A DNA stretch of 42,951 nt, taken from the NCBI GenBank assembly GCA_964538495.1, contig CAZIEA010000004.1:4262-47212 (forward strand), in the 5' to 3' direction. Below, piece by piece: positions 15,126 to 42,095 of the stretch. Each line of letters starts with the position of its first letter. The stretch's first letter is position 1. The DNA comes from an uncultured bacterium. GTDB taxonomy: Bacteria > Auribacterota > Erginobacteria > Erginobacterales > DAOSXE01. The notes beneath the pieces were generated by a model. The model saw only the letters and a list, made by a program, of their open reading frames with translations, was not told the origin of the DNA and ran no database searches. The position numbers and the translations under genes were made by a program.

Positions 15126-15280
15126 GCGGATCGCCGTTCCTACGGAACGGCTTGCAGTATCGTCACTCCTGGCGGAGTGACTTGCAGGATCGTCTCGACT
15201 GCGTCGAGACTTGTAGTATCGTCCCTCGCCTTGCTCGGGACTTGCGGTATCGCCGCTCCCTTGAGGGGAGCGGCTTGCAA
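15126..15280 (+). repeat. hairpin-unit array 1 (5 units, forward orientation)
   Basis: Units of 29-30 nt: head TTGYRGTATC followed by GCCGTTCC-tac-GGAACGGC, GTCACTCC-tggc-GGAGTGAC, GTCTCGAC-tgc-GTCGAGAC, GTCCC..GGGAC and GCCGCTCCC-ttga-GGGGAGCGGC. Begins 6 nt after the stop at 15120. Confidence 0.9.
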
Positions 15281-15330
15281 CTTTAGGCCTTATGCCCTAT
15301 GCTTTCATAGGCTGAAGGACCCGACGCTGC

Positions 15331-15566
15331 ATTCACATGTAGACATGTAGGACATGTAGAAAGGCTGAAGATTTTTTTCACAGTTTAACCGCGAATCCAA
15401 GGGCCACGGATCACGGATCACTGATTACGGATTACGATTTTCCCTGAACCCTGAACCCTGTATCCTGGGTTTCGACGGATTACGGATCACTGATTACGGA
15501 TTACGATTTTTCCTGAACCCAGACCCCTGAACGCAACCTACATGTTCTACATGTCTACATGTGAAT
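15331..15566. repeat. MITE-like 236-bp unit bounded by 29-nt inverted CATGTAG blocks
   Basis: ATTCACATGTAGACATGTAGGACATGTAG (15331-15359) matches the reverse complement of 15538-15566 at 28 of 29 positions. The interior holds only word repeats (GGCTGAAG, GGATYAC x8, CCTGAAC x4) and has no coding capacity. Confidence 0.8.
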
Positions 15567-15577
15567 AGGCGACGCGG

Positions 15578-17239
15578 ATGGTAGAGCCGATCACAATGAC
15601 GATCCGGAGCACGGCCCGGAGCTATCTCGAGGTCGTGTTCCACCGCAAGATGCTGATCGTGATCCCGGTCATCTTCGGGACCCTGATCGCCTGGGGCTAC
15701 AGCTTCACGGTCGCCCCGATGTATCAAAGTTCGGCCATCATCCAGGTGGCGGAAAAAGCCCGGGAAAACCCCTTCATCAAGGGCGCGGCCATGTCCACCC
15801 CCCTCTCCGCCCGGATCGGGGCCGTCATCCAGATGGTGAAAAGCCGCAACACCATCGAGGAGGTAATCAAGGAACTGGACTTGGCCCGCAATATCCGGAG
15901 TCCGGGGGAATATAATCGTCTGGTCAACGATCTCCGCGCCAACATCACGGTAAGTATCCGCCGCGATAATTTCATCGAGGTCTCCTGCTCCTACCCCACC
16001 GCCCAGGAAACCCGGGACATCGTCAACTCCATCACCCGCAAGATCATCAAACAGAACCTGGAGAGCCAGGAACTCGAAACCGAAACGGGCATCGAATATC
16101 TTAACAACGAGATTGAACTCTATAAACGCAAGCTGGAGGAAAACGAGGATCAGATTCAGAAATTCCGCGAAGCCAACGCGGAATATCTCCCGGAAGAGCT
16201 TTCCACCAGGATCTACAATACCTTGACCTGGACCGATCCCTATTCCGGAGAAGAGCAAGCCCCTCCTTTCAATGAGGAAGCGCTCCGCCGGACCGATCCC
16301 GGCGGCGTGTTGGGATTTCAGGCCCGCTACCAGAGTTACAGCACTGCTCTTCTCAACCAGGGCCGCGAATTGAAGTCCATGCAGAAGAAACGCGCCTCCC
16401 TGATCGGCCAGATGGAGGGTGAGGATGAGTTCGTCCTCACCCAGCGGGTCAGCGAGACCAGCCCGGTGATCCGGAGCCTGCGGGGGGAACTGACCCAGAA
16501 GCAGATCGAGCTGGCCCGGCTCAAGGTGGACGCCACCGAGGACCATCCCATGGTCCAGCGCCTGACCCGGGAAATCTCCAACATTCAGGATTCCATCCGG
16601 TCGGCGGCCGAGCAGTCGGTCCGGGAAGAGACCACCGCGCTCAACCCCATCTACCAGGCGATCCGGATGGAGTTGAGCCGGATAGATTCCGATATCGAGT
16701 CCCTCAAAGAGCAGATCGAGATCACCTCGCAGATGGCCGACGAGGCCTTCCTCCGTCTCCAGCAGGTTCCCCAGATCCAGAAAGAGATCACTCGCTTGCA
16801 GAGGGAATCCGCCATCCTGAGCCAGAGATACACCAATTTGATCGCCGCTCGGGAAAGGGCCTATATTTCCCGGCGGCTGGAACTCCAGGAGCGGGGGACC
16901 AAATTCAACATCATCGACGACGCTCAGGTCCCGCTCAAGCCTTTCAAGCCCAACCGCGGCTTGATCGTGATCGCCGGTTTTTTCGCCGGCTTGGTCCTGG
17001 GCGGGGCCCTGGTGGTCCTGGCCGAGGTGACCGATCACTCCTTCGAGGAGGCCAACCAGCTCCGGGAGTTCCTCCCCGTGCCCATGCTGGGGGCGGTGAG
17101 CCAGATCGTCACCCCGGAAGAGAAGGCTTTCGTTGCCGCGAAAAAGCGGCTGGGGTTCCTGGGCCTGGGCATTTTCGTGGTCCTGGTGGTTCTGGTGGCC
17201 ATCGTGGTCATGATCTTCGGACCCGGGGGGCAGGGATGA
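15578..17239 (+). CDS. polysaccharide co-polymerase / chain-length determinant (Wzz/GumC-type, PCP)
   Basis: 553 aa. N-terminal TM after SYLEVVFHRKMLIVIPVIFGTLIAWGYSF, a long coiled-coil periplasmic region, and C-terminal TM helices. Its stop overlaps the next start (ATGA at 17236-17239). Confidence 0.85.
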   Translation: MVEPITMTIRSTARSYLEVVFHRKMLIVIPVIFGTLIAWGYSFTVAPMYQSSAIIQVAEKARENPFIKGAAMSTPLSARIGAVIQMVKSRNTIEEVIKELDLARNIRSPGEYNRLVNDLRANITVSIRRDNFIEVSCSYPTAQETRDIVNSITRKIIKQNLESQELETETGIEYLNNEIELYKRKLEENEDQIQKFREANAEYLPEELSTRIYNTLTWTDPYSGEEQAPPFNEEALRRTDPGGVLGFQARYQSYSTALLNQGRELKSMQKKRASLIGQMEGEDEFVLTQRVSETSPVIRSLRGELTQKQIELARLKVDATEDHPMVQRLTREISNIQDSIRSAAEQSVREETTALNPIYQAIRMELSRIDSDIESLKEQIEITSQMADEAFLRLQQVPQIQKEITRLQRESAILSQRYTNLIAARERAYISRRLELQERGTKFNIIDDAQVPLKPFKPNRGLIVIAGFFAGLVLGGALVVLAEVTDHSFEEANQLREFLPVPMLGAVSQIVTPEEKAFVAAKKRLGFLGLGIFVVLVVLVAIVVMIFGPGGQG

Positions 17240-18075
17240 GCTGGGGAAAGACAAATCGAGGCGGGAAGCCCCGGACGGGCCTGGGCAAGGTCCGGGAATA
17301 CCTCCAGGAGAAGAAAAGCGGGATCGTCGAGGAGATCAGCTCCCTGACCTACGTCACCAAGCCCCGAATGCCCGGGGTCGGGCTCGACCCCCGGGTGGTG
17401 TCCCGCAGCGATCCCCAGAGCCACATCGCCGAGCAATACCGCTCGATCCGGACCAACCTCAGTTCCCTCTTCCCGGAGCCGAAGCCCCGGGCCTTTCTTT
17501 TCACCAGCGCCCTCCGGGGGGAGGGGAAGTCCGTCACCTCCGCCAACCTGGGGGCGGTTTTCGCCGACGAGATGGATAAGAAGGTGGTCCTGGTGGACGC
17601 CGACATGCGCAAGCCCTCCCAGCATAAAATCGTCGGGATGGAAAAGAGCCCCGGCTTATCGGAGATTCTTTCCGGCCGGGCCGAACTCGATGAGGTCCTG
17701 GACCGGGTAAAATTCGGAAACCTGCACGTGATCCTGAGCGGGGAGCCCCCGGCCAAGCCTTCGGAACTGCTGGGCTCGGAGCGGATGGAGAACTTGCTTT
17801 GCCGGCTCAAGGAGACCTTCGACTACATCATCTTCGACATCGCCCCCATCCTGGCCGTGACCGACGCCGGGGTCCTGGGCAAGTTCCTGGACGGCTCCAT
17901 CCTGGTGGTCCGGGCCGGGAAGACCCAGGCGGTGGACGTCGAGCGGGCCTACTCGCTGCTTTTGGAGGCGAACGCCAACCCGATCGGGAGTATCCTCACC
18001 GGGGTGGTGACCTACATCCCCTACTACCTCTACCGCTACCGCTACATGTATTCCCATAATTACTACACCACTTGA
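17236..18075 (+). CDS. CpsD/CapB-type bacterial tyrosine autokinase (BY-kinase)
   Basis: Walker A LRGEGKSVTS, Walker A' VVLVDADMRKP, Walker B DYIIFDIAP. C-terminal tyrosine cluster YIPYYLYRYRYMYSHNYYTT. Confidence 0.9.
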   Translation: MSWGKTNRGGKPRTGLGKVREYLQEKKSGIVEEISSLTYVTKPRMPGVGLDPRVVSRSDPQSHIAEQYRSIRTNLSSLFPEPKPRAFLFTSALRGEGKSVTSANLGAVFADEMDKKVVLVDADMRKPSQHKIVGMEKSPGLSEILSGRAELDEVLDRVKFGNLHVILSGEPPAKPSELLGSERMENLLCRLKETFDYIIFDIAPILAVTDAGVLGKFLDGSILVVRAGKTQAVDVERAYSLLLEANANPIGSILTGVVTYIPYYLYRYRYMYSHNYYTT

Positions 18076-18082
18076 GCATTCC

Positions 18083-18298
18083 TGCCTTGTGTGTTCCCCG
18101 GCCTTGTTGTTGTTATCGGAGTTCAGGCTGAAGGCTGAAGACTGAAGTCTGACGGCCCCGCCGCACCGATTGAACCGCGAATCTCGCGAATCCCCACAAA
18201 TCAAAGCGACGGATTACGGATCACTGATTACGGTTTGACCCTATGCTCTATGCCCTATGCTCTATGCTTAACAACGACAACGAATCGGGAACAAGAAC
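18083..18298. repeat. word-repeat mosaic including a 74-nt conserved module
   Basis: CCTTGTKGTT words, GGCTGAAG x4 (18125-18152), module 18160-18233 (70 of 74 identical to 23550-23623), CTATGCYC x4, then CGACAA words up to the ATG at 18299. Confidence 0.9.
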
Positions 18299-19330
18299 AT
18301 GAAGATACTGATCACGGGGGGAGCGGGATTCATCGGCTCTAACGCCGCCGCCCGGGCCCTGGCCCGGGGCGACGAAGTCACCGTCCTGGACGACCTTTCC
18401 CGGGCGGGGACTGCTCTCAACCTGAAATGGCTCCGGAGCCTGGGGAAGTTCCGCTTCGAGAAGATCGATATCCGCGACTACCGGCCTCTGCGGGAGCTCC
18501 TGGCGGAAGGGAAGTTCGACGCCATCTACCATCTCGCCGCCCAGGTGGCGGTGACCACCTCGGTGTCCGACCCCCGGACCGACTTCGAGATCAACGCCCT
18601 GGGGACCTTTAACCTCCTGGAGGCGGCCCGCGAGACCTCCCAGGACGGGGCTATCCTCTTCTCCTCCACCAACAAGGTCTACGGGAACCTCGAGGACATG
18701 CCGGTGGTGGAACGCCCGACCCGTTACGCCTTTTCCGGGGAAAAGGCCGCCGTCTCCGAGGAACAGCCCCTCGACTTCCATTCCCCTTACGGTTGTTCCA
18801 AGGGCGCCGCCGACCAGTACGTCCGGGACTACGCCCGCATTTACGGCCTTAAGACCGCGGTCCTGCGCCAGTCCTGCATTTACGGCCCCCGCCAGTTCGG
18901 GATCGAGGACCAGGGCTGGGTGGCTTGGTTCGTGATCGCCGCCCTGACCGGTCGCCCGATCACCGTTTACGGGGACGGCAAGCAGGTCCGGGACATCCTC
19001 TACATGGACGACCTCCTCGATGCCTTCGACCTCGCCGCCGCCAAGATCTCCAATTGCGCCGGGAGCGTCTTCAACCTCGGCGGCGGCCAAGCCAACACCC
19101 TTTCGCTCCTGGAGTTCTTCGGAATTCTGGAAAATCTGCTGGGCCGGAAGATCGAATACGCCTTTTCCGACTGGCGCCCGGGGGACCAGAAGATCTACGT
19201 CAGCGACATCGCCCGGGCCCGGAGTGCGTTGGGATGGAGTCCCCGGGTTTCGCCCCCGGAAGGCATTAAGCGCCTTTACGATTGGGTTTCCGAAAACATA
19301 CTTCTGATCGGGAAAGCCCTCGAGGCATAA
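18299..19330 (+). CDS. NAD-dependent epimerase/dehydratase (extended SDR, CDP-paratose 2-epimerase-like)
   Basis: MKILITGGAGFIGSN Rossmann motif and SPYGCSKGAADQY catalytic YxxxK. 343 aa. Confidence 0.85.
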   Translation: MKILITGGAGFIGSNAAARALARGDEVTVLDDLSRAGTALNLKWLRSLGKFRFEKIDIRDYRPLRELLAEGKFDAIYHLAAQVAVTTSVSDPRTDFEINALGTFNLLEAARETSQDGAILFSSTNKVYGNLEDMPVVERPTRYAFSGEKAAVSEEQPLDFHSPYGCSKGAADQYVRDYARIYGLKTAVLRQSCIYGPRQFGIEDQGWVAWFVIAALTGRPITVYGDGKQVRDILYMDDLLDAFDLAAAKISNCAGSVFNLGGGQANTLSLLEFFGILENLLGRKIEYAFSDWRPGDQKIYVSDIARARSALGWSPRVSPPEGIKRLYDWVSENILLIGKALEA

Positions 19331-19424
19331 CCGCTTCTTCGGCCCGGATGGTTTGGTTTAAATGTTGCCTTTGCCTAATCAAAATCGGGGCAATTCAGCC
19401 GGTTCGCGTCCGGGCGGCCCTTTT

Positions 19425-20159
19425 ATGTCCGTCATCATTCCCGCCCGGAACGAGGAGCATAATGTCGAAAAGACGTGCCGGGCCGTTGCCGGCGAATTCA
19501 AGGCCCATGGAATCGAAGACTGCGAAATACTCCTGGTAAACGATCACAGTTCGGACAAAACGCTCGAGACGCTCGCCCAGCTCAGCCGTTCGCTGCCGGG
19601 GGTGAGATACGTCGACAATGACGGCAGCCCCGGTTTCGGGATGGCGGTCCGCCTCGGGCTGGAGAAATCCCGCGGCGAAACGGTTTGCATCATGATGGCC
19701 GACCTCTCCGACTCGCCTTCCGACCTCCGCCGGTATTATGACGAGCTCCAGCGCGGGGCCGAGTGCGTGTTCGGCTCGCGTTTCATCAAGGGCTCCAGGA
19801 TATCCGGCTATCCTTTCCCCAAGTTGGTCTTGAACCGTTCGGTCAACTGGCTCATAAAACTGGTGTTCAAAATCCCCCATAATGACATTACCAATGCGTT
19901 CAAAGCCTATCGCCGCGAGGTTATTTCGGGAGTGAGCCCGCTCTTGTCGCACCATTTCAATTTGACGGTTGAGCTTCCCTTGAAAGCGATAGTCCGCGGC
20001 TACCGCTATACTACGGTTCCGATCTCATGGACTAACAGGGTGGAAGGGATTTCCAAACTGAAGATTAAGGAAATGGGCAGCCGCTACCTGTTCATCATCT
20101 TGTACGTTTGGCTGGAGAAACTTCTTTCGCGCGGCGATTACCGGCGACGGGGCGTGTAG
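19425..20159 (+). CDS. family 2 glycosyltransferase (polyprenol-phosphate sugar synthase-like)
   Basis: Start trimmed to the ATG at 19425 (MSVIIPARNEEHNV...LLVNDHSSD). C-terminal hydrophobic segment YLFIILYVWLEKLL. The TAG stop (20157-20159) lies inside the TGTAGTATC head of array 2. Confidence 0.8.
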   Translation: MSVIIPARNEEHNVEKTCRAVAGEFKAHGIEDCEILLVNDHSSDKTLETLAQLSRSLPGVRYVDNDGSPGFGMAVRLGLEKSRGETVCIMMADLSDSPSDLRRYYDELQRGAECVFGSRFIKGSRISGYPFPKLVLNRSVNWLIKLVFKIPHNDITNAFKAYRREVISGVSPLLSHHFNLTVELPLKAIVRGYRYTTVPISWTNRVEGISKLKIKEMGSRYLFIILYVWLEKLLSRGDYRRRGV

Positions 20160-20335
20160 TATCGTCGCTCCCGCGGAGCCGCATGTAGTATCGTCGCTCC
20201 TGCGGAGCGACTTGTAGTATCGTCGCTCCTGCGGAGCGACTTGTAGTATCGCCGCTTCTGCGAAGCGGCTTGCAGTATCGTCGCTCCTGCGGAGCGACTT
20301 GTAGTATCGCCGCTCCCCTGGAGCGGCTTGTAACA
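20157..20335 (+). repeat. hairpin-unit array 2 (6 units of 29 nt, forward)
   Basis: TTGTAGTATC followed by GTCGCTCC-tgc-GGAGCGAC (x3-4), GCCGCTTC-tgc-GAAGCGGC and GCCGCTCC-cct-GGAGCGGC. The period is a strict 29 nt. Confidence 0.95.
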
Positions 20336-20363
20336 GCAGCCTTAATTGTTGGATTATGGGGTC

Positions 20364-20756
20364 ATGAAATTCAAGTATGAGGAGCTCGAGATCTGGAAGG
20401 TGGCTCTGAACATGGCCAGGGTCGTTTTTGCGATATTGAAGAAATATCCGGACGACGAGAAATTCGGTCTGGTTTCTCAAGGCCGGAGGGCGGTGGTATC
20501 CATAGCCCTGAACATATCCGAGGGCAGCGGCAGGAAAACCAACAGGGATTTTTCGGTTTTCATCAACCGGGCATTATCTTCGTTGCAGGAGACGGATGCG
20601 GTTTTAAAGATCGGCCTGGCGATGCAGTACATCAGGGATGCCGACTACGCCGAGGCGGATCCTTTGTTGAAAGAAGAGTATTTCAAGTTGATTGCCTTCG
20701 ACAAAAAACTGCGTGAAGACCTTACATACGTGCGCGGCTACAGTTCCCTGAAGTAA
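20364..20756 (+). CDS. four-helix-bundle protein (23S rRNA intervening-sequence protein / Avd-like family)
   Basis: MKFKYEELEIWKVALNMARVVFAILKKYPDDEKFGLVSQGRRAVVSIALNISEGSGR...LSSLQETDAVLKI matches the family signature (ExW, QxRRAxxSIxxNIAEG) as I remember it. GC is visibly lower than in the neighbouring genes. Confidence 0.8.
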   Translation: MKFKYEELEIWKVALNMARVVFAILKKYPDDEKFGLVSQGRRAVVSIALNISEGSGRKTNRDFSVFINRALSSLQETDAVLKIGLAMQYIRDADYAEADPLLKEEYFKLIAFDKKLREDLTYVRGYSSLK

Positions 20757-20782
20757 ACTCTTCAACTCCGAGGATTGCGGCT

Positions 20783-20937
20783 TGCAAGGCCGCCGGAGGC
20801 GGCCGATACTACAAGCCCCGAGCGAAGCGAGCGGCGATACGACAAGTCCCGAGCAGGGCGAGGGACGATACGACAAGCCCCGACGCAAGTCGGGGCGATA
20901 CGGCAAGCCTTGAGCAGGGCGAGGGGCGATACGACAG
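20783..20937 (-). repeat. hairpin-unit array 4 (5 units, reverse orientation)
   Basis: Hairpin followed by GATACKACAAG, e.g. GGCCGCC-ggag-GCGGCC, GTCCCGAG-caggg-CGAGGGAC, GCCCCGAC-gcaa-GTCGGGGC. It is inverted relative to array 2 across the four-helix-bundle gene. Confidence 0.9.
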
Positions 20938-20957
20938 TTTTCAACCGGGAGAAAAAA

Positions 20958-21761
20958 ATGGACCAGTTATCCGAGTTGGAAAGCAAGAGCATCTACATTA
21001 TCCGGGAGGCCTACTACCAGTTCAAGGACATCGCGGCCCTCTGGTCGATCGGGAAGGATTCCACCACCCTGATCCACCTCTGCCGCAAGGCCTTTTACGG
21101 GGAAGTCCCCTTCCCGATGATGCACATCGACACCGGCTACAAGTTCCCGGAGATGTACCGTTTTCGGGACGAATACGCCAAGAAGTGGGGGATCCGGCTG
21201 ATCGTGACCCGCAACGAGGAGGCGATTGCCGCCGGGATGGGCCCTAACGTGGGGGAGAAGCTCGCCTGCTGCAACCAGCTCAAGACCAACGCCCTGAAAC
21301 TGGGGATCGCCAAGCACGGTTTCAAGGCTTTGCTCCTGGGCATCCGGCGCGACGAGCACGGGATCCGGGCCAAGGAGCGCTATTTCTCCCCCCGCAACGA
21401 GCAGTTTCAGTGGGACTACGAGAACCAGCCCCCGGAGCTCTGGGACCAGTACAAGTCCAAGGCCGCCGACGAGGAGCACATCCGGGTCCACCCTCTCCTG
21501 CACTGGACCGAGCTCAATATCTGGGAATACGTGAAACGGGAGAATCTGCCCATCACCGAGCTCTACTTCGCCAAAAACGGCAAGCGCTTCCGCTCCATCG
21601 GCTGCGTGCCCTGCTGCTCCCCGGTGGAATCCGAGGCCGACACCATCGACAAGATCATCGAGGAACTCAAGACCACCAAGGTCTCCGAGCGCGCCGGCCG
21701 CGCCCAGGACAAGGAGTCGGTGACGACCATGCAAAAACTCCGGGCCCTCGGCTACATGTAA
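20958..21761 (+). CDS. cysD: sulfate adenylyltransferase subunit 2
   Basis: Start trimmed to the ATG at 20958 (GGGAGA 8 nt upstream). The track's N-terminal extension runs through array 4. PP-loop WSIGKDSTTL and C-terminal ERAGRAQDKE...MQKLRALGYM. Confidence 0.9.
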   Translation: MDQLSELESKSIYIIREAYYQFKDIAALWSIGKDSTTLIHLCRKAFYGEVPFPMMHIDTGYKFPEMYRFRDEYAKKWGIRLIVTRNEEAIAAGMGPNVGEKLACCNQLKTNALKLGIAKHGFKALLLGIRRDEHGIRAKERYFSPRNEQFQWDYENQPPELWDQYKSKAADEEHIRVHPLLHWTELNIWEYVKRENLPITELYFAKNGKRFRSIGCVPCCSPVESEADTIDKIIEELKTTKVSERAGRAQDKESVTTMQKLRALGYM

Positions 21762-21813
21762 CCGCGTAACCACATAACCACTAATCTCGCTAATCCTCGC
21801 TAAAGGGAAAGCG

Positions 21814-22218
21814 ATGTGTCTACTGTATAAAGAGGAGGTGTACAAGCTAATCGGTGCGGCCATGGAAGTTTATAACTTGCTGGGCAATGGGTTCTTGGAA
21901 TCCGTGTACCAGGAAGCTTTGGAATATGAGTTGGATTTGAGAGGAATCCCTTATAAAGCCCAAGAGATGTTGCAGATCAAGTATAAGGACAAGATGCTTG
22001 AACATGCCTATAAGGCGGATCTGGTTCTTATGGATAAAATTATCGTGGAATTGAAAGCTATGGAAAAATTAGGCAGGAATGAGAAGGCGCAGATCATTAA
22101 TTATCTCAAGGCAACCAACCTTGAATTAGGGGTGTTGATAAATTTTGGGGCTAAGAACGATCTCGAATGGAAGAGAATGATATTGTCAAAAAACATGCCG
22201 TTAGAACCGGAAGTATAG
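21814..22218 (+). CDS. GxxExxY protein (PD-(D/E)XK nuclease-like small protein)
   Basis: LGNGFLESVYQEALEYEL...YKADLVLMDKIIVELKAME...AQIINYLKATNLELGVLINFG carries the GxxExxY motif and a D..ExK core. Clearly AT-richer than the flanking cysD and cysN. Confidence 0.8.
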   Translation: MCLLYKEEVYKLIGAAMEVYNLLGNGFLESVYQEALEYELDLRGIPYKAQEMLQIKYKDKMLEHAYKADLVLMDKIIVELKAMEKLGRNEKAQIINYLKATNLELGVLINFGAKNDLEWKRMILSKNMPLEPEV

Positions 22219-22290
22219 ATTGGTGCAGATTTGCGAGATTGGCGGTTAAAAAGCGGCGAGAAAAACCATAAAAATTAGCGGAGAAAAATC

Positions 22291-23532
22291 ATGAATAATC
22301 TTAGGTTTGTGATGGTGGGCCACGTGGACCACGGGAAGTCGACCTTGATCGGACGCCTTCTCTACGACACCGAGTCCCTGCCCCCGGACAAGATGGAGGA
22401 AATCCGGACCGCCTCCCAGGAGCAGGGAAGGGACGTCGAGTTTGCCTACGTGATGGACCACCTGGAGGAGGAGCGGGCGCGCAACATCACCATCGACACC
22501 GCCCAGACCTTCTTCCGGACCCCGCGCCGGGAATACGTGATCATCGACGCTCCCGGGCACAAGGAGTTCCTGAAAAACATGATCACGGGCGCCTCCCAGG
22601 CTGAAGCCGCGGTCCTGATCGTGGACGCCGCCGAGGGAGTGCGGGAGCAGACCCAGCGCCACGCCTTCATGATCGACATGCTCGGGCTGGAGCAGCTCAT
22701 CGTGGTGGTCAACAAGATGGACCAGGTCGGCTACGGGCAAAAGCGGTTCGAGCAGGTTAAGAGTAACCTCAACGAGTTCCTGGGCAAGGTCAACCTGAAA
22801 CCGACCTACGTCATCCCGATCTCGGCCAAGAACGGCGAGAACGTTTCCAACCGCTCCCAAAACATGCCCTGGTACACGGGGGTGACCTTCCTGGAGGGGC
22901 TCGATTCTTTCGTCAACCTGCCCTCCTCCCTGGAAAAGCCGCTGCGCTTCCCGGTCCAACTCGTGCACGAGATTGCCGGGGAAAAAGTCCTGATGGGCCG
23001 GGTCGAGGCCGGGCGGCTCCGCCGGGGCGGGGAGATCGTCTTTCTGCCTTCCGGGAAGAAGGCGAAGGTGAAAAATATCCTCGAGTTCGGGACCAAGGGG
23101 AAAGAAGAAGCCTCCGCCGGGGAGTCCGCCGGCATCGTCCTGGATCAAGCGCTCCCGGTGGGGCGGGGCGAGGTGGGGGCCGAACCGGGCCAGGAGCCGC
23201 CTTCGGCCGACCGTTTCGCGGCTTCCGTGTTCTGGATGTCGCCGGCGCCCTTCCGGATGGGGGAGAAGATCCTGCTGCGGGTGGCCACTGAGGAAGTCCC
23301 CGCCGAGATCGAAACCATCGCGGAGCGGATGGATTCCTCGACCCTGGAGATCCTCCAAAGGGGCGCTTCCGTCCTCAACGACACCGAGGCCGGGGAGGTG
23401 ACGATCCGGACCTCTCGCCCCGTGGTGGTGGAGTCCTTCTACAAGACCAAGGAGCTGGGGCGCTTCGTCCTGGTCCGGCGCAACGACGTCGTCGCCGGCG
23501 GCATCATTGCCCATAGCGTGCGCCGGTCGTAG
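22291..23532 (+). CDS. cysN: sulfate adenylyltransferase subunit 1 (GTPase), no fused APS-kinase domain
   Basis: GHVDHGKSTL (G1), DAPGH (G3), NKMD (G4). 413 aa, so too short to include a CysC fusion. Confidence 0.9.
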   Translation: MNNLRFVMVGHVDHGKSTLIGRLLYDTESLPPDKMEEIRTASQEQGRDVEFAYVMDHLEEERARNITIDTAQTFFRTPRREYVIIDAPGHKEFLKNMITGASQAEAAVLIVDAAEGVREQTQRHAFMIDMLGLEQLIVVVNKMDQVGYGQKRFEQVKSNLNEFLGKVNLKPTYVIPISAKNGENVSNRSQNMPWYTGVTFLEGLDSFVNLPSSLEKPLRFPVQLVHEIAGEKVLMGRVEAGRLRRGGEIVFLPSGKKAKVKNILEFGTKGKEEASAGESAGIVLDQALPVGRGEVGAEPGQEPPSADRFAASVFWMSPAPFRMGEKILLRVATEEVPAEIETIAERMDSSTLEILQRGASVLNDTEAGEVTIRTSRPVVVESFYKTKELGRFVLVRRNDVVAGGIIAHSVRRS

Positions 23533-23533
23533 C

Positions 23534-23660
23534 GCAGGGCTTCAGCCCTGCCGCACTGATTGAACCGCGAATCTCGCGAATCCACACAAATCAAAGCGAC
23601 GGATTACTGATCACTGATCACGGATTACGTTGGTTCTCCTGAACCCTGAACCCTGAACCC
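23534..23660. repeat. hairpin plus 74-nt module plus CCTGAAC words
   Basis: GCAGGGC-ttca-GCCCTGC (23534-23551) sits 2 nt after the cysN stop and occurs inverted at 41035-41052. Module 23550-23623 duplicates 18160-18233. CCTGAAC x3 at 23638-23660. Confidence 0.9.
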
Positions 23661-23665
23661 TCCGG

Positions 23666-24859
23666 TTGTATAGGCAGCTTGTCATCACGGTCGCGGCGGC
23701 GGCGGCGATCTACTCGGCCTGGCGGGTCTTTCCCGTCCTGGACGGGAAAGAGCAGTACGACTTCCGGACCTATTACTGGGCCGCCGCCGCCTTGGAGAAG
23801 GCCCTCGACCCCTACGAGGTCGCATCCCTCCGGGAAGTCTCCGGCCGCCCGATCTTTTTGACCTACATTTATCCCCCCTATACTCTGGGGCTGTTCCGGC
23901 CCCTGGTGCGGCTGGGGTACTCCCGGGCCTACGGGCTGTTTTTCGGGCTCAAGCTCGTTGCCCTCGGTTTCCTGATCCTGATCTGGGCCCGGGTCGTCCC
24001 GACGGGAAGACGGGGACTCTGGGCCGTGGCGGTCACCGCCCTGCTCGGCTACAAGGGCGCGGCCTTGCGGGACCTGGTCGCGGGGAATCTCTCGATTTTC
24101 GAGCAGGTCCTGATCTGGGGCGGGATCTGCCTGCTCCTGCGCGGCCGGGCCCTCCCGGGCGGGATCGTCCTCTTTCTCTCCGGAACGGTAAAGCTGGTGA
24201 CCTTGGCCCTGGGCCCGCTGGTTTTCGTGATCGGCCGCCGCCGCCGGGATCTCTTTCTCTGGCTGGGTCTCACGGCCGCCGCCGGCTTGCTGGTCCTGGG
24301 TTCCTATTTTTCCCGGCCGGGGGCCTGGCGTAGCTTTTATTCCTCGATGACCAAAGTCTCCTTTTTCGAGACCGGGGATCTCAACCCCAGCTCCCTGGCT
24401 TTCCTCAAGGACGTATCCGGGCGGCTGGGGGCGGGGGCAACATTTCCGGTTGTCACTTATGCGTTCTGGTCCGCCCTGGTCCTGGCGGCCTGGTTTTGGG
24501 CGTTCCGGAAGACCTTCGCTTCCGCGGACCGGCTCCCCATGGTTTACCTGACCGTCCTGGCCTATGTCCTGGTCTCCCCCAAGATGAAGGATTATTCCCT
24601 GCTTATCGCCGCCCTCCCGACCCTGCACGCGATCTGCGCGGTCCTGCCCGGGCGCTGGCGGCTGTTCGGCTGCGCCCTGCTCTGGATTCCCCTCTTCCCC
24701 TACCAGGGGTTATTGCTGGCCGCCGGGACGTTTTTCCTCCTCCTGCTCTGGGTCCGGCTTCACCGGGGCGATCCTGGGGCCAAGCTGGCCTCCTGCCTCG
24801 ATCCCCTCGAGTTCCTGAAAGACTGTCGGATCGACCCTCGCTGTGCTCGGGACTTGTAG
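23666..24859 (+). CDS. polytopic membrane glycosyltransferase, GT87/DUF2029-like (polyprenol-phosphate-mannose-dependent type)
   Basis: TTG start. DFRTYYWAAAALEKALDPYE...YIYPPYTLGLFRPL and AGNLSIFEQVL...GTVKLVTLALGP resemble DUF2029 motifs. The last ~12 codons and the TAG stop (24857-24859) lie in hairpin array 3. Confidence 0.65.
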   Translation: MYRQLVITVAAAAAIYSAWRVFPVLDGKEQYDFRTYYWAAAALEKALDPYEVASLREVSGRPIFLTYIYPPYTLGLFRPLVRLGYSRAYGLFFGLKLVALGFLILIWARVVPTGRRGLWAVAVTALLGYKGAALRDLVAGNLSIFEQVLIWGGICLLLRGRALPGGIVLFLSGTVKLVTLALGPLVFVIGRRRRDLFLWLGLTAAAGLLVLGSYFSRPGAWRSFYSSMTKVSFFETGDLNPSSLAFLKDVSGRLGAGATFPVVTYAFWSALVLAAWFWAFRKTFASADRLPMVYLTVLAYVLVSPKMKDYSLLIAALPTLHAICAVLPGRWRLFGCALLWIPLFPYQGLLLAAGTFFLLLLWVRLHRGDPGAKLASCLDPLEFLKDCRIDPRCARDL

Positions 24860-25116
24860 TATCGTCCCTCGCCTTGCTCGGAACTTGCCGCATCGCCGCG
24901 CCTCCCGGCGCGGCTTGCATCCCTATGCTCTATGCCCTATGCTTAAAAACTACAGGCTGAAGACTGAAGACTGAAGGCTGAAGGAACCGACGCCGCATTT
25001 CACATGTAGGCATGTAGGACATGTAGGTAAATTCGAAATTCAAATCCCCGAAACTCTCGCGCATTCTGGATTCTGAATTCTGACTCCTGACTCCTGTTTT
25101 TAAAAACCCTGAACCC
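24823..25116. repeat. hairpin array 3 (3 units, forward) followed by a word mosaic
   Basis: Hairpins GACCCTCG..CTCGGGAC, GTCCC..GGAAC and GCCGCGCC-tccc-GGCGCGGC. Then CTATGCYC x3, GRCTGAAG x4, a CATGTAG x3 block (24998-27), TTCGAAAT words, TYCTGA x5 and CCTGAAC. Confidence 0.9.
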
Positions 25117-25131
25117 ACACAAGGAGAGAAG

Positions 25132-25386
25132 ATGAAGGCAATGAGACAAGCTGCGTTTCTGGCGGCGGTGCTGGGGCTTTGCCACCTCCTGGCGCCGTCG
25201 CCCGCCCAGGCTTACCTGGATCCGGGCACGGGGAGCTACCTGTTCCAGATCCTGATCGCGGGCCTGGTCGGCGGCCTCTTCGCCCTCAAGCTCTTCTGGA
25301 AGCAGATCAAGGACTTCTTTCAGAAACTGTTCGGAAAGGGTGCGGATCGGGGAGGGAGTGACGAGACCCCCAGGAAATCCGAGTAA
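25132..25386 (+). CDS. small membrane protein (signal peptide, YLDPGTGS motif, one TM helix)
   Basis: Strong RBS AAGGAGAG 5 nt upstream. MKAMRQAAFLAAVLGLCHLLAPSPAQA then YLDPGTGSYLFQILIAGLVGGLFALKLFW. From memory, the motif resembles the YIGPGAGF N-termini of some alkaline-phosphatase-family proteins. Confidence 0.55.
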   Translation: MKAMRQAAFLAAVLGLCHLLAPSPAQAYLDPGTGSYLFQILIAGLVGGLFALKLFWKQIKDFFQKLFGKGADRGGSDETPRKSE

Positions 25387-25445: not shown

Positions 25446-25455
25446 TTTACCGGAT

Positions 25456-29950: not shown

Positions 29951-29954
29951 GAGA

Positions 29955-35447: not shown

Positions 35448-36419
35448 ATGAACAAGCCGATAGAACTCTCGGTCATCGCCCCCTTGTATAATGAAGAGTC
35501 TTGCATCGCGGGCAACGTGGAGCGTTTTCTTTCCGCTCTGCGGGGGTTCGGCGGGGAATGGGAACTGATCCTGGTCAACGACGGGAGCACCGATTCCTCC
35601 CTGGAAAAGCTGCGGCCTTATGCGCAGAAAGAGCCCCGGATCGTCCTGGCCAGCTACGAGGTCAACCGGGGCCGGGGCTACGCCCTCCGGCAGGGCTTTG
35701 CCCGGGCCCGGGGCCGCTACATCGTCACCACCGAGTCCGACCTTTCCTGGGGGGAGGGGATCGTCCTGAGCCTTTACGGGGAACTGAAGCGGACGGGGCT
35801 GGATGTCGTGATCGCCTCTCCCTACCGGGAAGGAGGGAAACTGGAGAACATTCCCCTGAAAAGGGCGTTTCTCAGCCGATTCGGCAACAAGCTCCTCACC
35901 GCCTCGGTTCCGGCCGACCTGACGATGCTGAGCGGGATGACCCGGGGCTACCGGGCCGAGGTAATCAGGGCGCTCGACCTGGAATCGGACGGGAAGGAGA
36001 TCCACCTGGAAATCGTAGCTAAGTGCCTGGCCCTGGGCTACCGGATCGGGGAGATTCCGGCCGTTCTCAGGTGGGAAAAGCCTATTGCCGGGAAGCAGGT
36101 CCGCCAGTCCAAGTTCCACTCCCGCAAGCTCATCCTCAGTCACCTGGCTTTTTCCTTCTACCAGAAACCGATGTTGATTTTCGGGGCGGCGGGGGCCGTG
36201 ATGGTCCTGGGCGGTCTCGCCCTGGCCGTTTTGTTCGCCGTGCAGTTCTTGCTGCGCACCCTTTACCCGACTCGCCCGATCTATCTGCTGATGGTGATCC
36301 TGCTGGTGGCCGGGATACAGATGCTCAGTTTCGGGTTCCTGGCCAACCAGCTCGGGAGCCTCAAGCGCGACATCTACCGGCTCCAGCGTTCGGTCAAGGA
36401 AAAGCGGGGAGGGTTATAG
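35448..36419 (+). CDS. family 2 glycosyltransferase, GtrB-like (two C-terminal TM helices)
   Basis: Start trimmed to the ATG at 35448 (GGGAGA upstream). LSVIAPLYNEESCI...LILVNDGSTDSS. C-terminal MLIFGAAGAVMVLGGLALAV and IYLLMVILLVAGIQMLSFGFL. Confidence 0.85.
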   Translation: MNKPIELSVIAPLYNEESCIAGNVERFLSALRGFGGEWELILVNDGSTDSSLEKLRPYAQKEPRIVLASYEVNRGRGYALRQGFARARGRYIVTTESDLSWGEGIVLSLYGELKRTGLDVVIASPYREGGKLENIPLKRAFLSRFGNKLLTASVPADLTMLSGMTRGYRAEVIRALDLESDGKEIHLEIVAKCLALGYRIGEIPAVLRWEKPIAGKQVRQSKFHSRKLILSHLAFSFYQKPMLIFGAAGAVMVLGGLALAVLFAVQFLLRTLYPTRPIYLLMVILLVAGIQMLSFGFLANQLGSLKRDIYRLQRSVKEKRGGL

Positions 36420-37277: not shown

Positions 37278-37665
37278 AACATGTAGAAAGGCAAATTCGA
37301 AATCAGAATGACGAAATTCGAAACCGCGTGGTCGTTGTCGTGTTTCGGCATAGAGCATAGGGCATAGGGACGCAACTCCAGGCTGAAGGAACTGCCGCTG
37401 CATTCACATGTAGACATGTAGGGCATGTAGAAAACCAAGAGCATTTTCACGCAAAGACGCAAAGACGCCAAGGAACGGATCGTTCACCAACCTTTTTGCT
37501 CTTGGCGACGGGTTCTGCAAGCCGCGACGACAGGAGCGGCGATACGACAAGTCCCTAGGCGAAGCCGAGGGACGATACTACAAGTTCCGAGCGGAGCGAG
37601 GAACGATACTGCAAGTCATTCCGCAGGAATGACGATACGGCAGTTTTGTTCTGAACCCTGAACCC
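37217..37665. repeat. large repeat mosaic between the FkbM gene and the wecB 3' end
   Basis: Degenerate hairpin unit, CATGTAG block (37259-86), TTCGAAA words, reverse CGACAA and CTATGC words, GGCTGAAGG, 74-nt composite module (37402-37475), ~100-nt module (37448-37550, about 85% identical to 41867-41967), hairpin array 6 (4 units, reverse, 37515-37633), and CCTGAAC x2. Confidence 0.9.
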
Positions 37666-37670: not shown

Positions 37671-38735
37671 TTATCCCATATAGCTTTTGATAATTTCCAC
37701 GATGGCCGCCGCGGCTTGCCCGTCGCCGAAGACTGGTTCCGGCGGGGCAGGGGGTTTGGGCAGACGCAGGGCTTGAGCAATCCGCTCCGGGTCCGCCCCG
37801 GCCAGGACGTTCCAGCCCCTCTCGAGCGTCTCCACCCACTCGGTCTCCTCCCGCAGGGTGACGCAGGGCACGCCGAGCAGGTAGGCTTCCTTCTGCACCC
37901 CGCCGGAATCGGTCAGGATCCGGGCGGCGTTCTCCTCCAGCAGGAGCATTTCCAGGTAGCCGCAGGGGGGGACCGGCCGGATGTTGGGGCCCGGTTTCCG
38001 GCCTGACTTGACCAGGGCCGCGGCCGTCCGGGGATGGGCCGGGAAGATGACCGGCAGGTCCGCCCCTTCCAGGGCCCCCAGGATGGCGTTCATTCGCTCG
38101 GGGTCGTCGGTGTTGCCGGCCCGGTGGATCGTGAGTAGGTAGTAACTCCCGCATTCAAGCCCGAACCGGGCGAGGATATCCGCCTTTCCCGCCGCTCTCC
38201 GTCGGCAGCGCAGCAGGATATCGAGCATTACGTCCCCGGTCAGATTGACCCCCTTTACGATCCCTTCCCGCCGGAGGTTTCCCACGGCGGTTTCGGTGGG
38301 GCAGAAGAGCAGCGCCGAGACCTCGTCGGCCAGGACGCGGTTGATCTCCTCGGGCATCTCCCGGTTGAAGCTGCGCAGCCCGGCCTCCACGTGCCCGACG
38401 GGGATATGGAGCTTGGCGGCCGCGAGCGAACCGGCCAGGGTGGAGTTGGTGTCGCCGTAAACCAGGACCAGGTCAGGGGATTCCTCTTCCAAAACTTCCT
38501 CGATCGCCGCCAGCATCCGCCCGGTCTGGAAACCGTGGGAGCCTGAGCCGATGCCGAGGTTGCGGTCGGGCTCCGGGATTTCCAGTTCCCGGAAGAAGAC
38601 CGAAGACATGGCGTCGTCGTAGTGCTGGCCGGTATGAACGAGGATTTCCCGGAAACTTTTGCGCAGCTCTCGGCTGAGGGCGGCGGCCTTGACGAACTGG
38701 GGCCTCGCCCCCACGATCGAGCAGATCTTTTTCAT
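37671..38735 (-). CDS. wecB: UDP-N-acetylglucosamine 2-epimerase (non-hydrolysing)
   Basis: MKKICSIVGARPQFVK...HTGQHYD...YGDTNSTLAG...HVEAGLRSFN. This is the only minus-strand gene in the 11.9-43 kb cluster. Confidence 0.9.
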   Translation of the reverse strand: MKKICSIVGARPQFVKAAALSRELRKSFREILVHTGQHYDDAMSSVFFRELEIPEPDRNLGIGSGSHGFQTGRMLAAIEEVLEEESPDLVLVYGDTNSTLAGSLAAAKLHIPVGHVEAGLRSFNREMPEEINRVLADEVSALLFCPTETAVGNLRREGIVKGVNLTGDVMLDILLRCRRRAAGKADILARFGLECGSYYLLTIHRAGNTDDPERMNAILGALEGADLPVIFPAHPRTAAALVKSGRKPGPNIRPVPPCGYLEMLLLEENAARILTDSGGVQKEAYLLGVPCVTLREETEWVETLERGWNVLAGADPERIAQALRLPKPPAPPEPVFGDGQAAAAIVEIIKSYMG

Positions 38736-38749
38736 CGCTGCTTACCGCT

Positions 38750-38902
38750 ATTCACATGTAGACATGTAGGGCATGTAGAAAACCAAGAGCATTTTCACGC
38801 AAAGGCGCAAAGACGCCAAGGAAAACCAATTTGTCCACAGATTGCACAGATTTTACCTTCATGTTCTTCATGCTCTTCATGGTGAGAAAAGGTAGGCTGA
38901 AG
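38750..38902. repeat. 74-nt composite module followed by a 71-nt module
   Basis: 38750-38823 matches 37402-37475 at 73 of 74 positions (CATGTAG x3 + AACCAAGAGCATTTTCAC + GCAAAGRC x2 + GCCAAGGAA). 38832-38902 is about 90% identical to 11635-11704 (CACAGATT x2, TTCATGYYC x3, GGTGAGAAAAG, GGCTGAAG). Confidence 0.9.
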
Positions 38903-38932
38903 ACCGATTGCCTGGGTTATACTTAATAAACT

Positions 38933-40735: not shown

Positions 40736-40744
40736 GGGGCTTGT

Positions 40745-41052
40745 TTCGAGTTTCGGGGATTCGAACTTCGAATTTCATTTTAGGACTTATAAGACCCATA
40801 GGACATATACGACCCAGAGGATGGCGCCTTGCCACTCTGTGCTATGCTCTATGCCTGAACCCGGAGCCTCGGCGCTTGACGCTATGCGCTCTGCGCTGCG
40901 CCGATTACGACCACGACCACGAATTAATCCGTGAACGAATCGGTTTTTCTTTGCGTCTTTGCGTCTTTGCGCCTTTGCGTGAAAATGCTCTTGGTTTTCT
41001 ACATGCCCTACATGTCTACATGTGAACACGAGTGGCAGGGCTGAAGCCCTGC
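40745..41052. repeat. repeat mosaic with the inverted copy of the 74-nt composite module
   Basis: TTCGAA words, ATAGGAC/ATAAGAC/ATACGAC words, CTATGC words, GATTACGACCACGACCACGA, CTTTGCGY x4 plus reverse CATGTAG x3 (40950-41026, an inverted copy of 38750-38823 with one extra GCAAAGAC unit), and hairpin GCAGGGC-tgaa-GCCCTGC (41035-41052). Confidence 0.9.
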
Positions 41053-41064
41053 GCTACGACTGAA

Positions 41065-41784
41065 ATGAAACCGCTGGTCCTGATCCCCACTTATAACGAG
41101 GCCGCCAACATCGCCGAGGTGGTCCGCGGAATCCGCGCGGCTTGCCCGGAGGCGGAAGTCCTGGTGGCCGACGACGATTCTCCCGACCGCACCTGGGAGA
41201 TCGTGGAGAAACTCGCCGCCACCGACCCCCGGATCCATCTCCTGCGCCGGATCGGGGACCGGGGCCGGGGCAGGGCGGGCCGGGACGGCTTTCTCTGGGC
41301 GCTGAAAAACGGGTTCGACCGCGTGATCGAGATGGACGGGGATGGGTCCCACCCGCCCGAGGTCCTGCCCCGGCTGCTGGAAGCCTCCGAACACTACGAC
41401 GCGGTCATCGGTTCGCGCTACCTGCCCGGGGGCGGGTCGCTCCGCCAGGGGAAGCACCGGGACCTGATCAGTTCCCTGGCCCGCCGCTATTTGCGGCTCG
41501 TTCTGGGGGTGAAGGTGAGCGACCCCACCTCCGGGTTGCGGCTTTTCCGCGCCTCCGCCCTGGAGGCCATAGACGTCCGTTCGCTCCGGAGCCGCGATCC
41601 CTTTATCGTGACCGAGGTGCTTTACCGCTGCCAGAGGGCGGGCTTGCGGATCGGGGAGGTCCCCTTCGTCTTTCGCGACCGGCTGGCCGGGGAATCCAAA
41701 CTCGGCGGCGGGGGGCTGGTGAAATACCTCTTCCCTGTGCTGAAATTAAGGTTTTCCCGGTTGGATTCACATGTAGACATGTAG
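41065..41784 (+). CDS. family 2 glycosyltransferase, polyprenol monophosphomannose synthase-like
   Basis: Start trimmed to the ATG at 41065. MKPLVLIPTYNEAANI...VLVADDDSPDRTW...RGRGRAGRDGF...EMDGDGSHPP. The C-terminal SHVDM and the TAG stop (41782-41784) lie in a CATGTAG block. Confidence 0.85.
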   Translation: MKPLVLIPTYNEAANIAEVVRGIRAACPEAEVLVADDDSPDRTWEIVEKLAATDPRIHLLRRIGDRGRGRAGRDGFLWALKNGFDRVIEMDGDGSHPPEVLPRLLEASEHYDAVIGSRYLPGGGSLRQGKHRDLISSLARRYLRLVLGVKVSDPTSGLRLFRASALEAIDVRSLRSRDPFIVTEVLYRCQRAGLRIGEVPFVFRDRLAGESKLGGGGLVKYLFPVLKLRFSRLDSHVDM

Positions 41785-42095
41785 GGCATGTAGAAGGGTT
41801 CAGGGTTCGGGGTTCAGGCGCGAAGCGGGGTCGGGATCGGGATCGGTATCGGGCGCGCGTAAGCATCACGCAAAGACGCAGCGACGCCAAGGAACGGATC
41901 GTTCACCAACCTTTTTGCTTTTAGCGGCGGGTTTTGCAAGCCGCTTTCGAAGGAGCGGCGATACCAGGTGCCAAAAAGACGCGCCTCCTGACTCCTGAAT
42001 CCTGACTCCTGTATCCTGGGCTTCCGGACTCTATGCTCTATGCCCTATGCTCTATGCCATAGCCTGAACCCTGAACCCTGAACCCTGAGAACTCC
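41765..42095. repeat. repeat mosaic
   Basis: CATGTAG x3 (41765-41793), reverse CCTGAAC words (GGTTCAGG x3), GGGATCG x3-4, ~100-nt module (41867-41967) ending in a single reverse hairpin unit, TCCTGAY x4, CTATGCYC x4, CCTGAAC x3. Confidence 0.9.

Follow-up and report, generated by a model that had tools for sequence, protein, structure and literature searches.

To our knowledge, nearly all work on REP-type (repetitive extragenic palindromic) repeats has been done in Proteobacteria, in which an inverted doublet and the tetranucleotide GTAG are treated as their signature. REPs are typically found as inverted pairs, and REP dimers joined head to tail are lacking or under-represented (Di Nocera et al., PMC3733652). 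Group-3 REPs have a perfect 8-bp stem and a 3-nt loop, a conserved stem mismatch is required in group-2 REPs, and bacterial interspersed mosaic elements (BIMEs) alternate the orientation of their REPs (REP/iREP) with two types of linker (PMC8266576). In Stenotrophomonas maltophilia, REP-type hairpins of the SMAG family are reiterated intergenically as variable-number tandem repeats (VNTRs) with strain-variable copy number (PMC2613905). Here we describe arrays of short hairpins in a 42,951-bp stretch of DNA (the window; G+C 60%) from an uncultured bacterium of the Auribacterota (contig CAZIEA010000004.1), which an earlier reading of the letters alone, the original prediction, had compared with GTAG-tagged REPs. 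The seven arrays, A1 to A7, hold 28 units (5+6+5+3+4+4+1, arrays split by hand). They are non-coding and lineage-specific, and are neither a gene nor a known RNA. The reading that we favour, and of which we are about half convinced, is that they constitute a REP/BIME-like repeat family at the DNA level that is maintained through a single-stranded hairpin form. The family would then represent REP logic, i.e. complementary, strain-variable, extragenic hairpins, in a deep uncultured lineage and in another layout. This layout differs in its directional strings, fixed linker and strand-polar DNA-stabilising motifs, and a canonical family of GTAG hairpins with a Y1 transposase occurs in the same genomes.

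The arrays resemble REPs associated with RAYT transposases, especially group-3 REPs and Stenotrophomonas SMAG, in being short, extragenic, GC-rich palindromes of probably high copy number (PMC8266576, PMC3733652). REPs number in the hundreds per genome; the tally here is 28 units in the 43-kb window and about 150 units in about 30 contigs. Perfect 8-bp stems with 3-4-nt loops or a conserved stem mismatch are further likenesses, as are several complementary stem variants that vary between strains and sometimes overlap gene ends. An extragenic palindrome of 20-50 nt able to form a stem-loop is common to both. Two defining features of REPs are lacking, namely a conserved tetranucleotide (usually GTAG) directly 5′ of the palindrome on the recognised strand and the inverted pairing of BIMEs and REPINs (REP doublets); instead, the array units share one orientation and a fixed 10-nt linker. 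Thus, we class the arrays with the REP/BIME kind, as a variant of it, and not as a member of the GTAG-REPs. The original prediction was right that a head-to-tail layout is atypical for REPs, as such dimers are lacking or under-represented among them (PMC3733652).

Like BIMEs and the dRS3/RS arrays of Neisseria, the present arrays are strain-variable intergenic mosaics of small palindromes with linkers or short modules. They have the conserved linker and the reiteration of BIMEs, but their orientation is uniform rather than alternating, 3-5 different hairpins follow each other in a preferred order, and the surrounding DNA is a mosaic of 7-9-nt tandem repeats. SMAG arrays duplicate one hairpin or dimer together with 26-31 bp of arbitrary flank, whereas differing, covarying stems share one family-wide linker here. 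The ends of IS200/IS605 elements and palindrome-associated transposable elements (PATEs) have imperfect hairpins and a short conserved sequence at the hairpin foot, as the array units do, and such elements are present in two array-bearing contigs, L093 and L038. IS200/IS605 end hairpins are recognised as single-stranded DNA. In contrast to these elements, none of the transposase genes found is bounded by array units, and the units form direct multi-copy strings rather than one left and one right end. In a REPtron the Y1 gene sits between inverted copies of its own REPs; the two Y1 genes found in related contigs are flanked by canonical GTAG hairpins, not by array units. A period of about 30 nt and a conserved segment alternating with a variable one recall CRISPR arrays, but the conserved segment is only 10-12 nt long, compared with 23-50 nt for CRISPR repeats, the variable segments are palindromes of 17-23 nt belonging to few recurring types and not unique spacers, and Pfam found no cas domains in the window. 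CRISPR was rejected.

Unit anatomy and covariation of the stems

The original prediction described seven arrays of about 28 hairpin units, in which a conserved head TTG(T/C)(A/G)GTATC is followed by a simple stem of about 8 bp, repeated at a fixed period of 29 nt. The number of units was confirmed, and exact TTGYRGTATC occurs 14 times in the window compared with 0.12 times expected from shuffles. Tandem Repeats Finder (TRF) reported arrays of period 29-31 at every multi-unit locus. The period itself is not fixed; it ranges from 27 to 33 nt and is mostly 29-31. As every array starts with ATC-hairpin and ends with hairpin-TTGCA or hairpin-TTGTA, the 10-nt linker TTGYNGTATC is the junction of two units, and the unit is better described as ...(G/T)ATC-hairpin-TTG(Y)A.

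A scan of metagenomes for two consecutive linkers yielded 118 loci, about 30 of them with true arrays (G+C 0.57-0.67). The 99 distinct units from the window and these about 30 metagenome contigs underlie the unit statistics given below and were used to build a covariance model (R1). Across them, only TTG, G6, ATC and the flanking G/C are invariant, so that the predicted head turned out to be conserved in part. A covariance-model scan had been proposed as a check: run on the window with filters off, R1 recovered the array units and no further significant copies, the best other match (E = 0.11) lying inside a gene.

The hairpins are 17-23 nt long and have stems of 7-10 bp or of 5 plus 2/3 bp. 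Type 1 has a perfect 8-bp stem and a 3-5-nt loop, with 11 different stems; all eight pairs are Watson-Crick, with no mismatch, in 42 of the 47 distinct units of this type. Loops vary freely on a constant stem, up to eight per stem, as for GCCGCGCC with its eight loops. Type 2, with 41 distinct units plus 11 variants, consists of 5 bp, a conserved 2x2 internal loop TC/TC and 2-3 bp, and type 3 is the terminal type GCCGC-TCCTGTCGTC-GCGGC with the same TC/TC geometry. About one third of the window units are of internal-loop form (e.g. GTCCC-TC-GC-nnn-GC-TC-GGGAC) or degenerate, so the simple 8-bp stem expected in every unit does not hold for these. One register aligns all hairpin types.

The nine stem pairs listed in the original prediction are all present and perfectly complementary, and the compensatory changes claimed there are clearly borne out. 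In the aligned units, 85% of the stem cells are paired compared with 64% after shuffling, and both-sided changes occur in seven of the eight stem pairs. The covariation score is 0.52 against 0.18 for shuffled units, a value reached in none of 500 shuffles, and slid registers gave 0.06-0.14. Stems no more complementary than shuffled ones, which would have refuted the original prediction, are clearly not what the data show. Wobble intermediates are almost absent (G.T in 2 of 791 cells). Folded on either strand and compared with dinucleotide shuffles, whole arrays reached z = -5.0 to -5.9 with DNA and -3.9 to -5.9 with RNA parameters. Double changes thus keep the stems complementary, and the loops drift.

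The arrays and their units are as follows, the strand being the one that carries the linker as written (top strand). Relative to the coordinates first proposed, A6 extends to 37643 instead of 37633, and the solo unit occupies 41935-41969.

15123-15279, plus strand: A1, five units and tail TTGCA (15275-15279), starting 3 nt past the stop of the gene at 13654-15120. Units 1-2: 15123-15151, GCCGTTCC/TAC/GGAACGGC; 15152-15181, GTCACTCC/TGGC. Units 3-4: 15182-15210, GTCTCGAC/TGC; 15211-15241, internal-loop type GTCCC-TC-GC-CTT-GC-TC-GGGAC. Unit 5: 15242-15274, GCCGCTCCC/TTGAG.
20154-20332, plus strand: A2, six units of 29 nt and tail TTGTA (20328-20332); the gene at 19362-20159 has its stop codon in the first linker (TAG). 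Units 1-4: 20154-20182, degenerate; 20183-20211; 20212-20240; 20241-20269, GCCGCTTC. Units 5-6: 20270-20298; 20299-20327, GCCGCTCC/CCT.
20783-20937, minus strand: A3, five units and tail (20787-20783), its first-unit end lying 21 nt upstream of position 20959, where the cysD-like gene starts. Units 1-3: 20937-20907, degenerate; 20906-20877, GCCCCGAC/TTGC; 20876-20846, internal-loop type. Units 4-5: 20845-20815; 20814-20788, GGCCGCC/TCC.
24823-24919, plus strand: A4, three units and tail TTGCA (24915-24919); the gene at 23666-24859 has its stop codon in the second linker (TAG). Units: 24823-24853 and 24854-24884, both internal-loop type; 24885-24914, GCCGCGCC/TCCC.
29828-29951, minus strand: A5, four units and tail (29832-29828), its first-unit end 3 nt short of the Wzy_C gene's in-frame ATG (29955). 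Units: 29951-29922, GTCACTCC/TGAC; 29921-29893, GCCGCTTC/TAC; 29892-29862, internal-loop type; 29861-29833, GCCGCTCC/TCC.
37516-37643, minus strand: A6, four units and tail (37520-37516), placed 27 nt downstream from the stop codon of the gene at 37671-38735 on the minus strand. Units 1-2: 37643-37615, GTCATTCC/TGC; 37614-37584, GTTCC internal-loop type. Units 3-4: 37583-37551, GTCCC-TCGGC type; 37550-37521, GCCGC-TCCTGTCGTC-GCGGC.
41935-41969, minus strand: A7, a solo terminal unit, ACCTGGTATC + GCCGCT/CCTTCGAA/AGCGGC + TTGCA (R1 score 25.8 bits, E = 2e-4).
37447-37515, minus strand: flanking module of family D11, joined to the last hairpin of A6.
41866-41934, minus strand: flanking module of family D11, joined to the solo unit A7.

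The tandem signal of A2 comprises 6.1 copies with 87% matches (TRF), and its recurring GTCGCTCC units point to a local 29-nt duplication, as an additional 61-nt period in A3 (TRF) points to a duplication of two units. In the folding comparison, A5 gave z = -5.9 and -5.0. The order of units in A6 is also found in contigs L033, L040, L084, L100 and L103. A7 is the counterpart of the last unit of A6 plus its flank; 37447-37545 and 41866-41964 are 88% identical over 99 nt, so that the last, GCCGC-type hairpin belongs to a longer dispersed module.

All 28 units are intergenic or overlap the last codons of genes, and two arrays, A2 and A4, supply stop codons. According to the gene coordinates, intergenic DNA amounts to about 3.7 kb of the window, and the seven arrays (about 875 nt) make up about a quarter of it. 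The extragenic position claimed for the arrays therefore stood, whereas their co-transcription at gene ends did not stand as a rule. Of the seven window arrays, three are sense (A1, A2, A4), three antisense (A3, A5, A7) and one, A6, lies between convergent genes; divergent gaps are also occupied elsewhere. Scored against the flanking genes across loci, 10 arrays are sense, 8 antisense, 6 convergent and 5 divergent, i.e. array orientation relative to genes is random.

Strand polarity, the GTAG tag and Y1 transposase genes

The bottom strand, complementary to the linker as written, reads hairpin-GATACNNCAA. Loops of 3-4 nt of the form G..A are found on this strand in 59 of the 99 units, 58 of them closed by C:G, and on the top strand in a single unit. 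The conserved TC/TC internal loop becomes two facing CGAG motifs (CGAG/CGAG) on the bottom strand, and the sporadic mismatches, 12 C.A versus 2 T.G on the top strand, correspond to 12 versus 2 wobble pairs on the bottom strand. The strand asymmetry itself is thus plain. Triloops d(GNA) closed by C:G, GCGNAGC/GCGNNAGC mini-hairpins and CGAG with tandem sheared G:A pairs are unusually stable DNA (PMC3201870, PMC13037366, PMC10085684). In the energy calculations this was reproduced only weakly; with RNA parameters, folding the bottom instead of the top strand gained about 2 kcal/mol. The bottom strand is probably the folded and selected strand, and probably so as DNA.

As predicted, the window holds no transposase gene: Pfam searches of all plausible genes revealed neither a Y1/HUH nor a DDE transposase, and a RayT profile was likewise negative for the former. 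The suggestion that a Y1 gene flanked by array units might be present was pursued in the array-bearing contigs. Two IS200-like Y1 transposase genes were found there (L093, 3400-3848; L038, 5633-6244), with support from PF01797 (E = 4.8e-28) and the NCBIfam IS200/IS605 model NF033573 (82.7 bits). The L093 gene was detected by a scan for the HUH...Y motif and the L038 gene subsequently by phmmer with the L093 protein; the enterobacterial RayT profile had missed both (E = 5.9 for L093 and 5.7 for L038). Both genes are flanked by a different kind of hairpin, arranged as the triplet GCCCYC-GCA-GRGGGC / (G/A)TAG-CCNCGGGC-GNNA-GCCCGNGG / GCCCYC-GCA-GRGGGC, and gene-less triplets occur at four more places in L038. 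The sites of this second family are:

L093, 3289-3983: Y1 element, gene between inverted hairpin triplets.
L038, 5526-6244: Y1 element, gene between inverted hairpin triplets.
L038, 95-183, 1570-1660 and 1756-1845: further hairpin sites of the Y1 family.
L100, 452-1012: further hairpin site of the Y1 family.

This hairpin family is absent from the window, relative to which the Y1 copy of L038 is an insertion (window 18118-18271). Judged from these sequences, the lineage has, besides the array family, a separate GTAG-hairpin/Y1 system that is active and canonical. Its presence shows that single-strand hairpin enzymology exists in these genomes.

The array linkers compare poorly with this system. 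GTAG is present in only 41 of the 99 distinct linkers, the others having GCAG, GTCG, GCCG or GCGG. Where present, it is separated from the stem by 4 nt (TATC), and the G-N-A loops and CGAG blocks are on the other strand. In the Y1-flanking hairpins, (G/A)TAG adjoins the stem and shares its strand with the GNNA loop. This contrast weakens the argument from GTAG, on which the proposed likeness to REPs had partly relied. From the idea of a GTAG-REP/RAYT family, the hairpin, its covariation and its extragenic location survived, while the GTAG tag was lost.

Array syntax, proposed mechanism and competing explanations

In the metagenomes, arrays have 3-4 units and a stereotyped syntax. A normal array strings together 3-5 different hairpins that all point one way. 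Its first linker is special, reading (C/T)TGTCGTATC as opposed to TTG(T/C)AGTATC for internal linkers, and its last hairpin is nearly always of the GCCGC(G/T)CC type, followed by TTGC or TTGG. An identical order of four hairpins recurs in contigs with unrelated flanking genes, inside a conserved mosaic of 7-9-nt tandem repeats, indicating that whole arrays behave as dispersed paralogous modules. Many of the array-bearing contigs come from one JGI metagenome, and ordinary housekeeping genes were among the matches listed for the array neighbours (112 flanking open reading frames (ORFs), 151 Pfam families).

Contig L038 is orthologous to window positions 17144-24959 with 92-94% nucleotide identity. 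Its A4 has exactly one additional 30-nt unit, it carries an array between cysN and the GT87 gene where the window has other mosaic sequence, and it lacks the window block 19330-20950 with a GT2 gene, A2, a four-helix-bundle gene and A3. Zero units were found at the syntenic loci of more distant relatives (CysN identity 77-78%, G+C 53-55%). These losses, gains and local duplications of whole units, together with the absence from relatives with 77-78% CysN identity, indicate that the family is young, lineage-restricted and turning over.

If the arrays are indeed maintained as single-stranded hairpins, selection or copying would act on that form, most likely on bottom-strand DNA. The 12-nt direct repeats CTTGTAGTATCG at the unit borders may mediate loss and duplication of units, and the most plausible agent would be a Y1/HUH-type (IS200/RAYT) enzyme that acts on single-strand DNA in a structure-specific manner. 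Effects on transcripts, such as 3′-end protection or structure in the 5′ untranslated region, would be secondary; transcribed copies could form stable hairpins that might affect mRNA ends. A more specific version, which we regard as distinctly doubtful, is that a candidate HUH/Y1-type enzyme cuts the linker on the strand of the G-N-A loops and re-inserts units at other linkers, so that arrays are built by self-targeting. Were this true, a REP-like system would yield directional strings of different hairpins and not an inverted doublet. Discovery of the enzyme would widen the known range of single-strand DNA recognition by HUH proteins and show how arrays rather than doublets arise.

Several observations weigh against the single-stranded DNA reading. 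Both Y1 genes are flanked by the other hairpin family, and no enzyme is linked to the array units. In the bona fide REP family GTAG and loop share a strand, while they are on opposite strands in the array units. It is published thermodynamics that favours the bottom strand; with DNA parameters, the computed gain was just 0.4 kcal/mol for the internal-loop hairpins and zero for the perfect ones. As DNA, the internal-loop hairpins are marginally stable (-3.4 to -4.8 kcal/mol, with z ranging from about -1 to -1.7); as RNA they reach -7.8 to -10.8 kcal/mol. Moreover, to judge from the stereotyped order of units and the special units at the ends, it is whole arrays and not single units that are copied, which a single-hairpin REP mechanism leaves unexplained. 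Finally, several arrays lie within 3-30 nt of stop or start codons, which would also fit a role in the transcript.

Some E. coli REPs have been shown to act in transcripts by protecting 3′ ends, setting processing points or insulating cistrons. By analogy, the arrays could be cis-acting RNA elements, their transcribed hairpin strings protecting mRNA 3′ ends, setting points of processing or insulating the cistrons of operons. Covarying stems are what such a function would produce, the arrays fold well as RNA (z = -3.9 to -5.9) with internal-loop hairpins stabler than as DNA, A1, A2, A4 and A6 start 0-30 nt past stop codons in sense orientation, and different stems within one array would avoid mispairing between units. 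Nevertheless, we consider this explanation unlikely. Arrays are oriented at random and occupy divergent gaps too, with A3, A5 and A7 antisense in co-directional gaps, and G.U, the usual intermediate of RNA helices, accounts for just 2 of 791 cells. The array hairpins are followed by TTGYNGTATC or TTGCA and have no T-run, and none of the 21 terminator-like sites in 14900-30100, a number at chance level, falls into an array, so that intrinsic terminators were rejected. No Rfam family is involved: a search of the window with Rfam 15 gave no match at the gathering thresholds and, at E <= 1, a single unrelated one (a miRNA model at 36189-36241, E = 0.7). A CsrA-type sponge was likewise discarded because GGA is merely one of many loop sequences. 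The presence of arrays also differs between strains with the same operon, and they are missing from the syntenic operons of relatives. Random orientation, the lack of an Rfam family, of T-runs and of terminators, and the near-absence of G.U together make it unlikely that the arrays exist because of a strand-specific function in RNA.

Three further explanations were weighed. In Tn7- and Mu-type elements, the ends carry subterminal transposase sites. The arrays could correspondingly be ends or modules of a mobile mosaic element, with the linker as a repeated protein-binding site, the TGT-starting first linker as the terminus and the hairpins as spacers. The polarity of the arrays, with their distinct first linker (C/T)TGTCGTATC and last hairpin, would suit such ends, and whole arrays recur with their flanking mosaic as paralogous copies. 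Furthermore, the four-helix-bundle gene lies between A2 and A3, which are inverted and turn their first-unit ends outward, this block is missing from L038, and the 99-nt module common to A6 and A7 reaches past the last hairpin. Inverted pairing is not consistent, however, as arrays elsewhere face the opposite way (L065) or stand alone; there is no target-site duplication at A2/A3 and no DDE transposase in the window, and palindromic "spacers" kept complementary by double changes are left unexplained. On balance this origin appears quite improbable. Arrays of sites at which a nucleoid or regulatory protein binds duplex DNA, with the linker as a site every three or so helical turns, would account for the linker as the only strongly conserved sequence, for a spacing of 29-31 bp close to three turns of B-DNA and for arrays in divergent regions containing promoters. 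The covariation of the stems and the strand-polar loops are not accounted for, the period varies from 27 to 33 nt and arrays are dispensable between close strains, making this proposal highly improbable. Plain tandem duplication of one hairpin by VNTR-type slippage, its structure not being selected, agrees with the local 29-nt and 61-nt duplications in A2 and A3 and with the VNTRs formed by SMAG REPs in Stenotrophomonas (PMC2613905). As an account of the whole family it is barely credible: the stems of adjacent units usually differ, identical stem types turn up again in other arrays, and covariation in seven of eight pairs beyond shuffled and slid controls contradicts it.

Mosaic DNA, a sister sub-family and neighbouring genes

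Nearly every intergenic region of the window is a mosaic of 7-9-nt tandem repeats (TRF), among them ACATGTAG, CTATGCT, AGGCTGA, CCTGAAC, ACGGATT, TCCTGAA, ACGCAAAG and CTTCATG. A composite module, (AGGCTGA)n-AGGAAC..GCATTCAC(ATGTAGNC)3, occurs 11 times compared with 0 expected, and the same mosaic modules flank the metagenome arrays in either orientation. They resemble the short tandemly repeated repetitive (STRR) heptamers of cyanobacteria. A search of the literature turned up no relevant description of such a heptamer or hairpin mosaic. The mosaic regions are:

11540-11880, 13514-13653, 15280-15577, 18076-18298, 23533-23665 and 24920-25131: mosaic regions.
29778-29827, 37278-37515, 38736-38932, 40736-41031 and 41785-42148: mosaic regions.

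Beyond the metagenomes, nothing but chance matches and a Chloroflexi repeat unrelated to the arrays came up when a genome collection was scanned for two linkers in succession, and a scan of viral contigs found nothing related. The Chloroflexi repeat, on contigs of Chloroflexi metagenome-assembled genomes (L004, 2910-3130; L005, 1385-1560), is a degenerate tandem repeat GCGCGGTTTGTAG(TATCG) of variable spacing and without hairpins. That it has the 11-mer TTGTAGTATCG in common with the arrays is due solely to the search pattern, which selects for this 11-mer.

A sister sub-family of arrays is found in L013, L035, L060, L081 and L108 (Ga0272443/Ga0272444). Its first linker reads (A/C)GTAGGATC or CTG(C/T)AGGATC, and its first hairpin is GTGCCGCC-nnn-GGCGGCAC or, in L060, GCCGCTTC-TGC-GAAGCGGC. 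In L035, L060, L081 and L108 the last element is different and pairs poorly (GCTCCCGC...). L060 has two near-identical array copies 190 nt apart.

At the left of the window, a single open frame on the minus strand (2-11536) of at least 3845 codons with a third-position G+C (GC3) of 0.80 extends beyond the window start. Its counterpart in syntenic relatives is a protein of 6032-6122 aa, with NosD/beta-helix repeats in L126-L128. Pfam matched none of the 14 shorter ORFs tested in this region (12 to 11573, both strands), two of which, 10650-10916 and 11139-11573, lie partly within or extend past 9917 and 11536. The remainder of the window is an exopolysaccharide/PEP-CTERM-type gene cluster, nearly all on the plus strand (Pfam), whose products are Poly_export+TPR, Wzz/GNVR, an AAA_31 kinase, epimerases, several GT2, GT87, Wzy_C, PMT_2 and CysD/CysN-like proteins. 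At the right end, the mechanically called minus-strand ORF 42098-42913 is probably spurious. The plus-strand frame 42149-42949, which extends past the window end, has a GC3 of 0.85 as in real genes; taking this frame as the real one places A7 antisense in a co-directional gap.

The small four-helix-bundle or 23S rRNA-IVP family gene (20364-20756; PF05635, TIGR02436) is the one enclosed by the inverted pair A2 and A3, whose first-unit ends point outward; no further IVP copies were found in array-bearing loci. A GxxExxY / PD-(D/E)XK_3 gene (21814-22218) is located between the cysD-like and cysN-like genes. It occupies the same site in L126-L128 (58% identity) and is absent in L038 and L129-L131, a patchy, insertion-like distribution.

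RpoN from array-bearing contigs has just 43-45% identity to named Candidatus Auribacterota or Verrucomicrobiota proteins. Several short-read contigs end inside arrays, namely L001 (at a point equivalent to window 20213), L042, L045, L103 and L116, suggesting that arrays and mosaics fragment assemblies of this organism.

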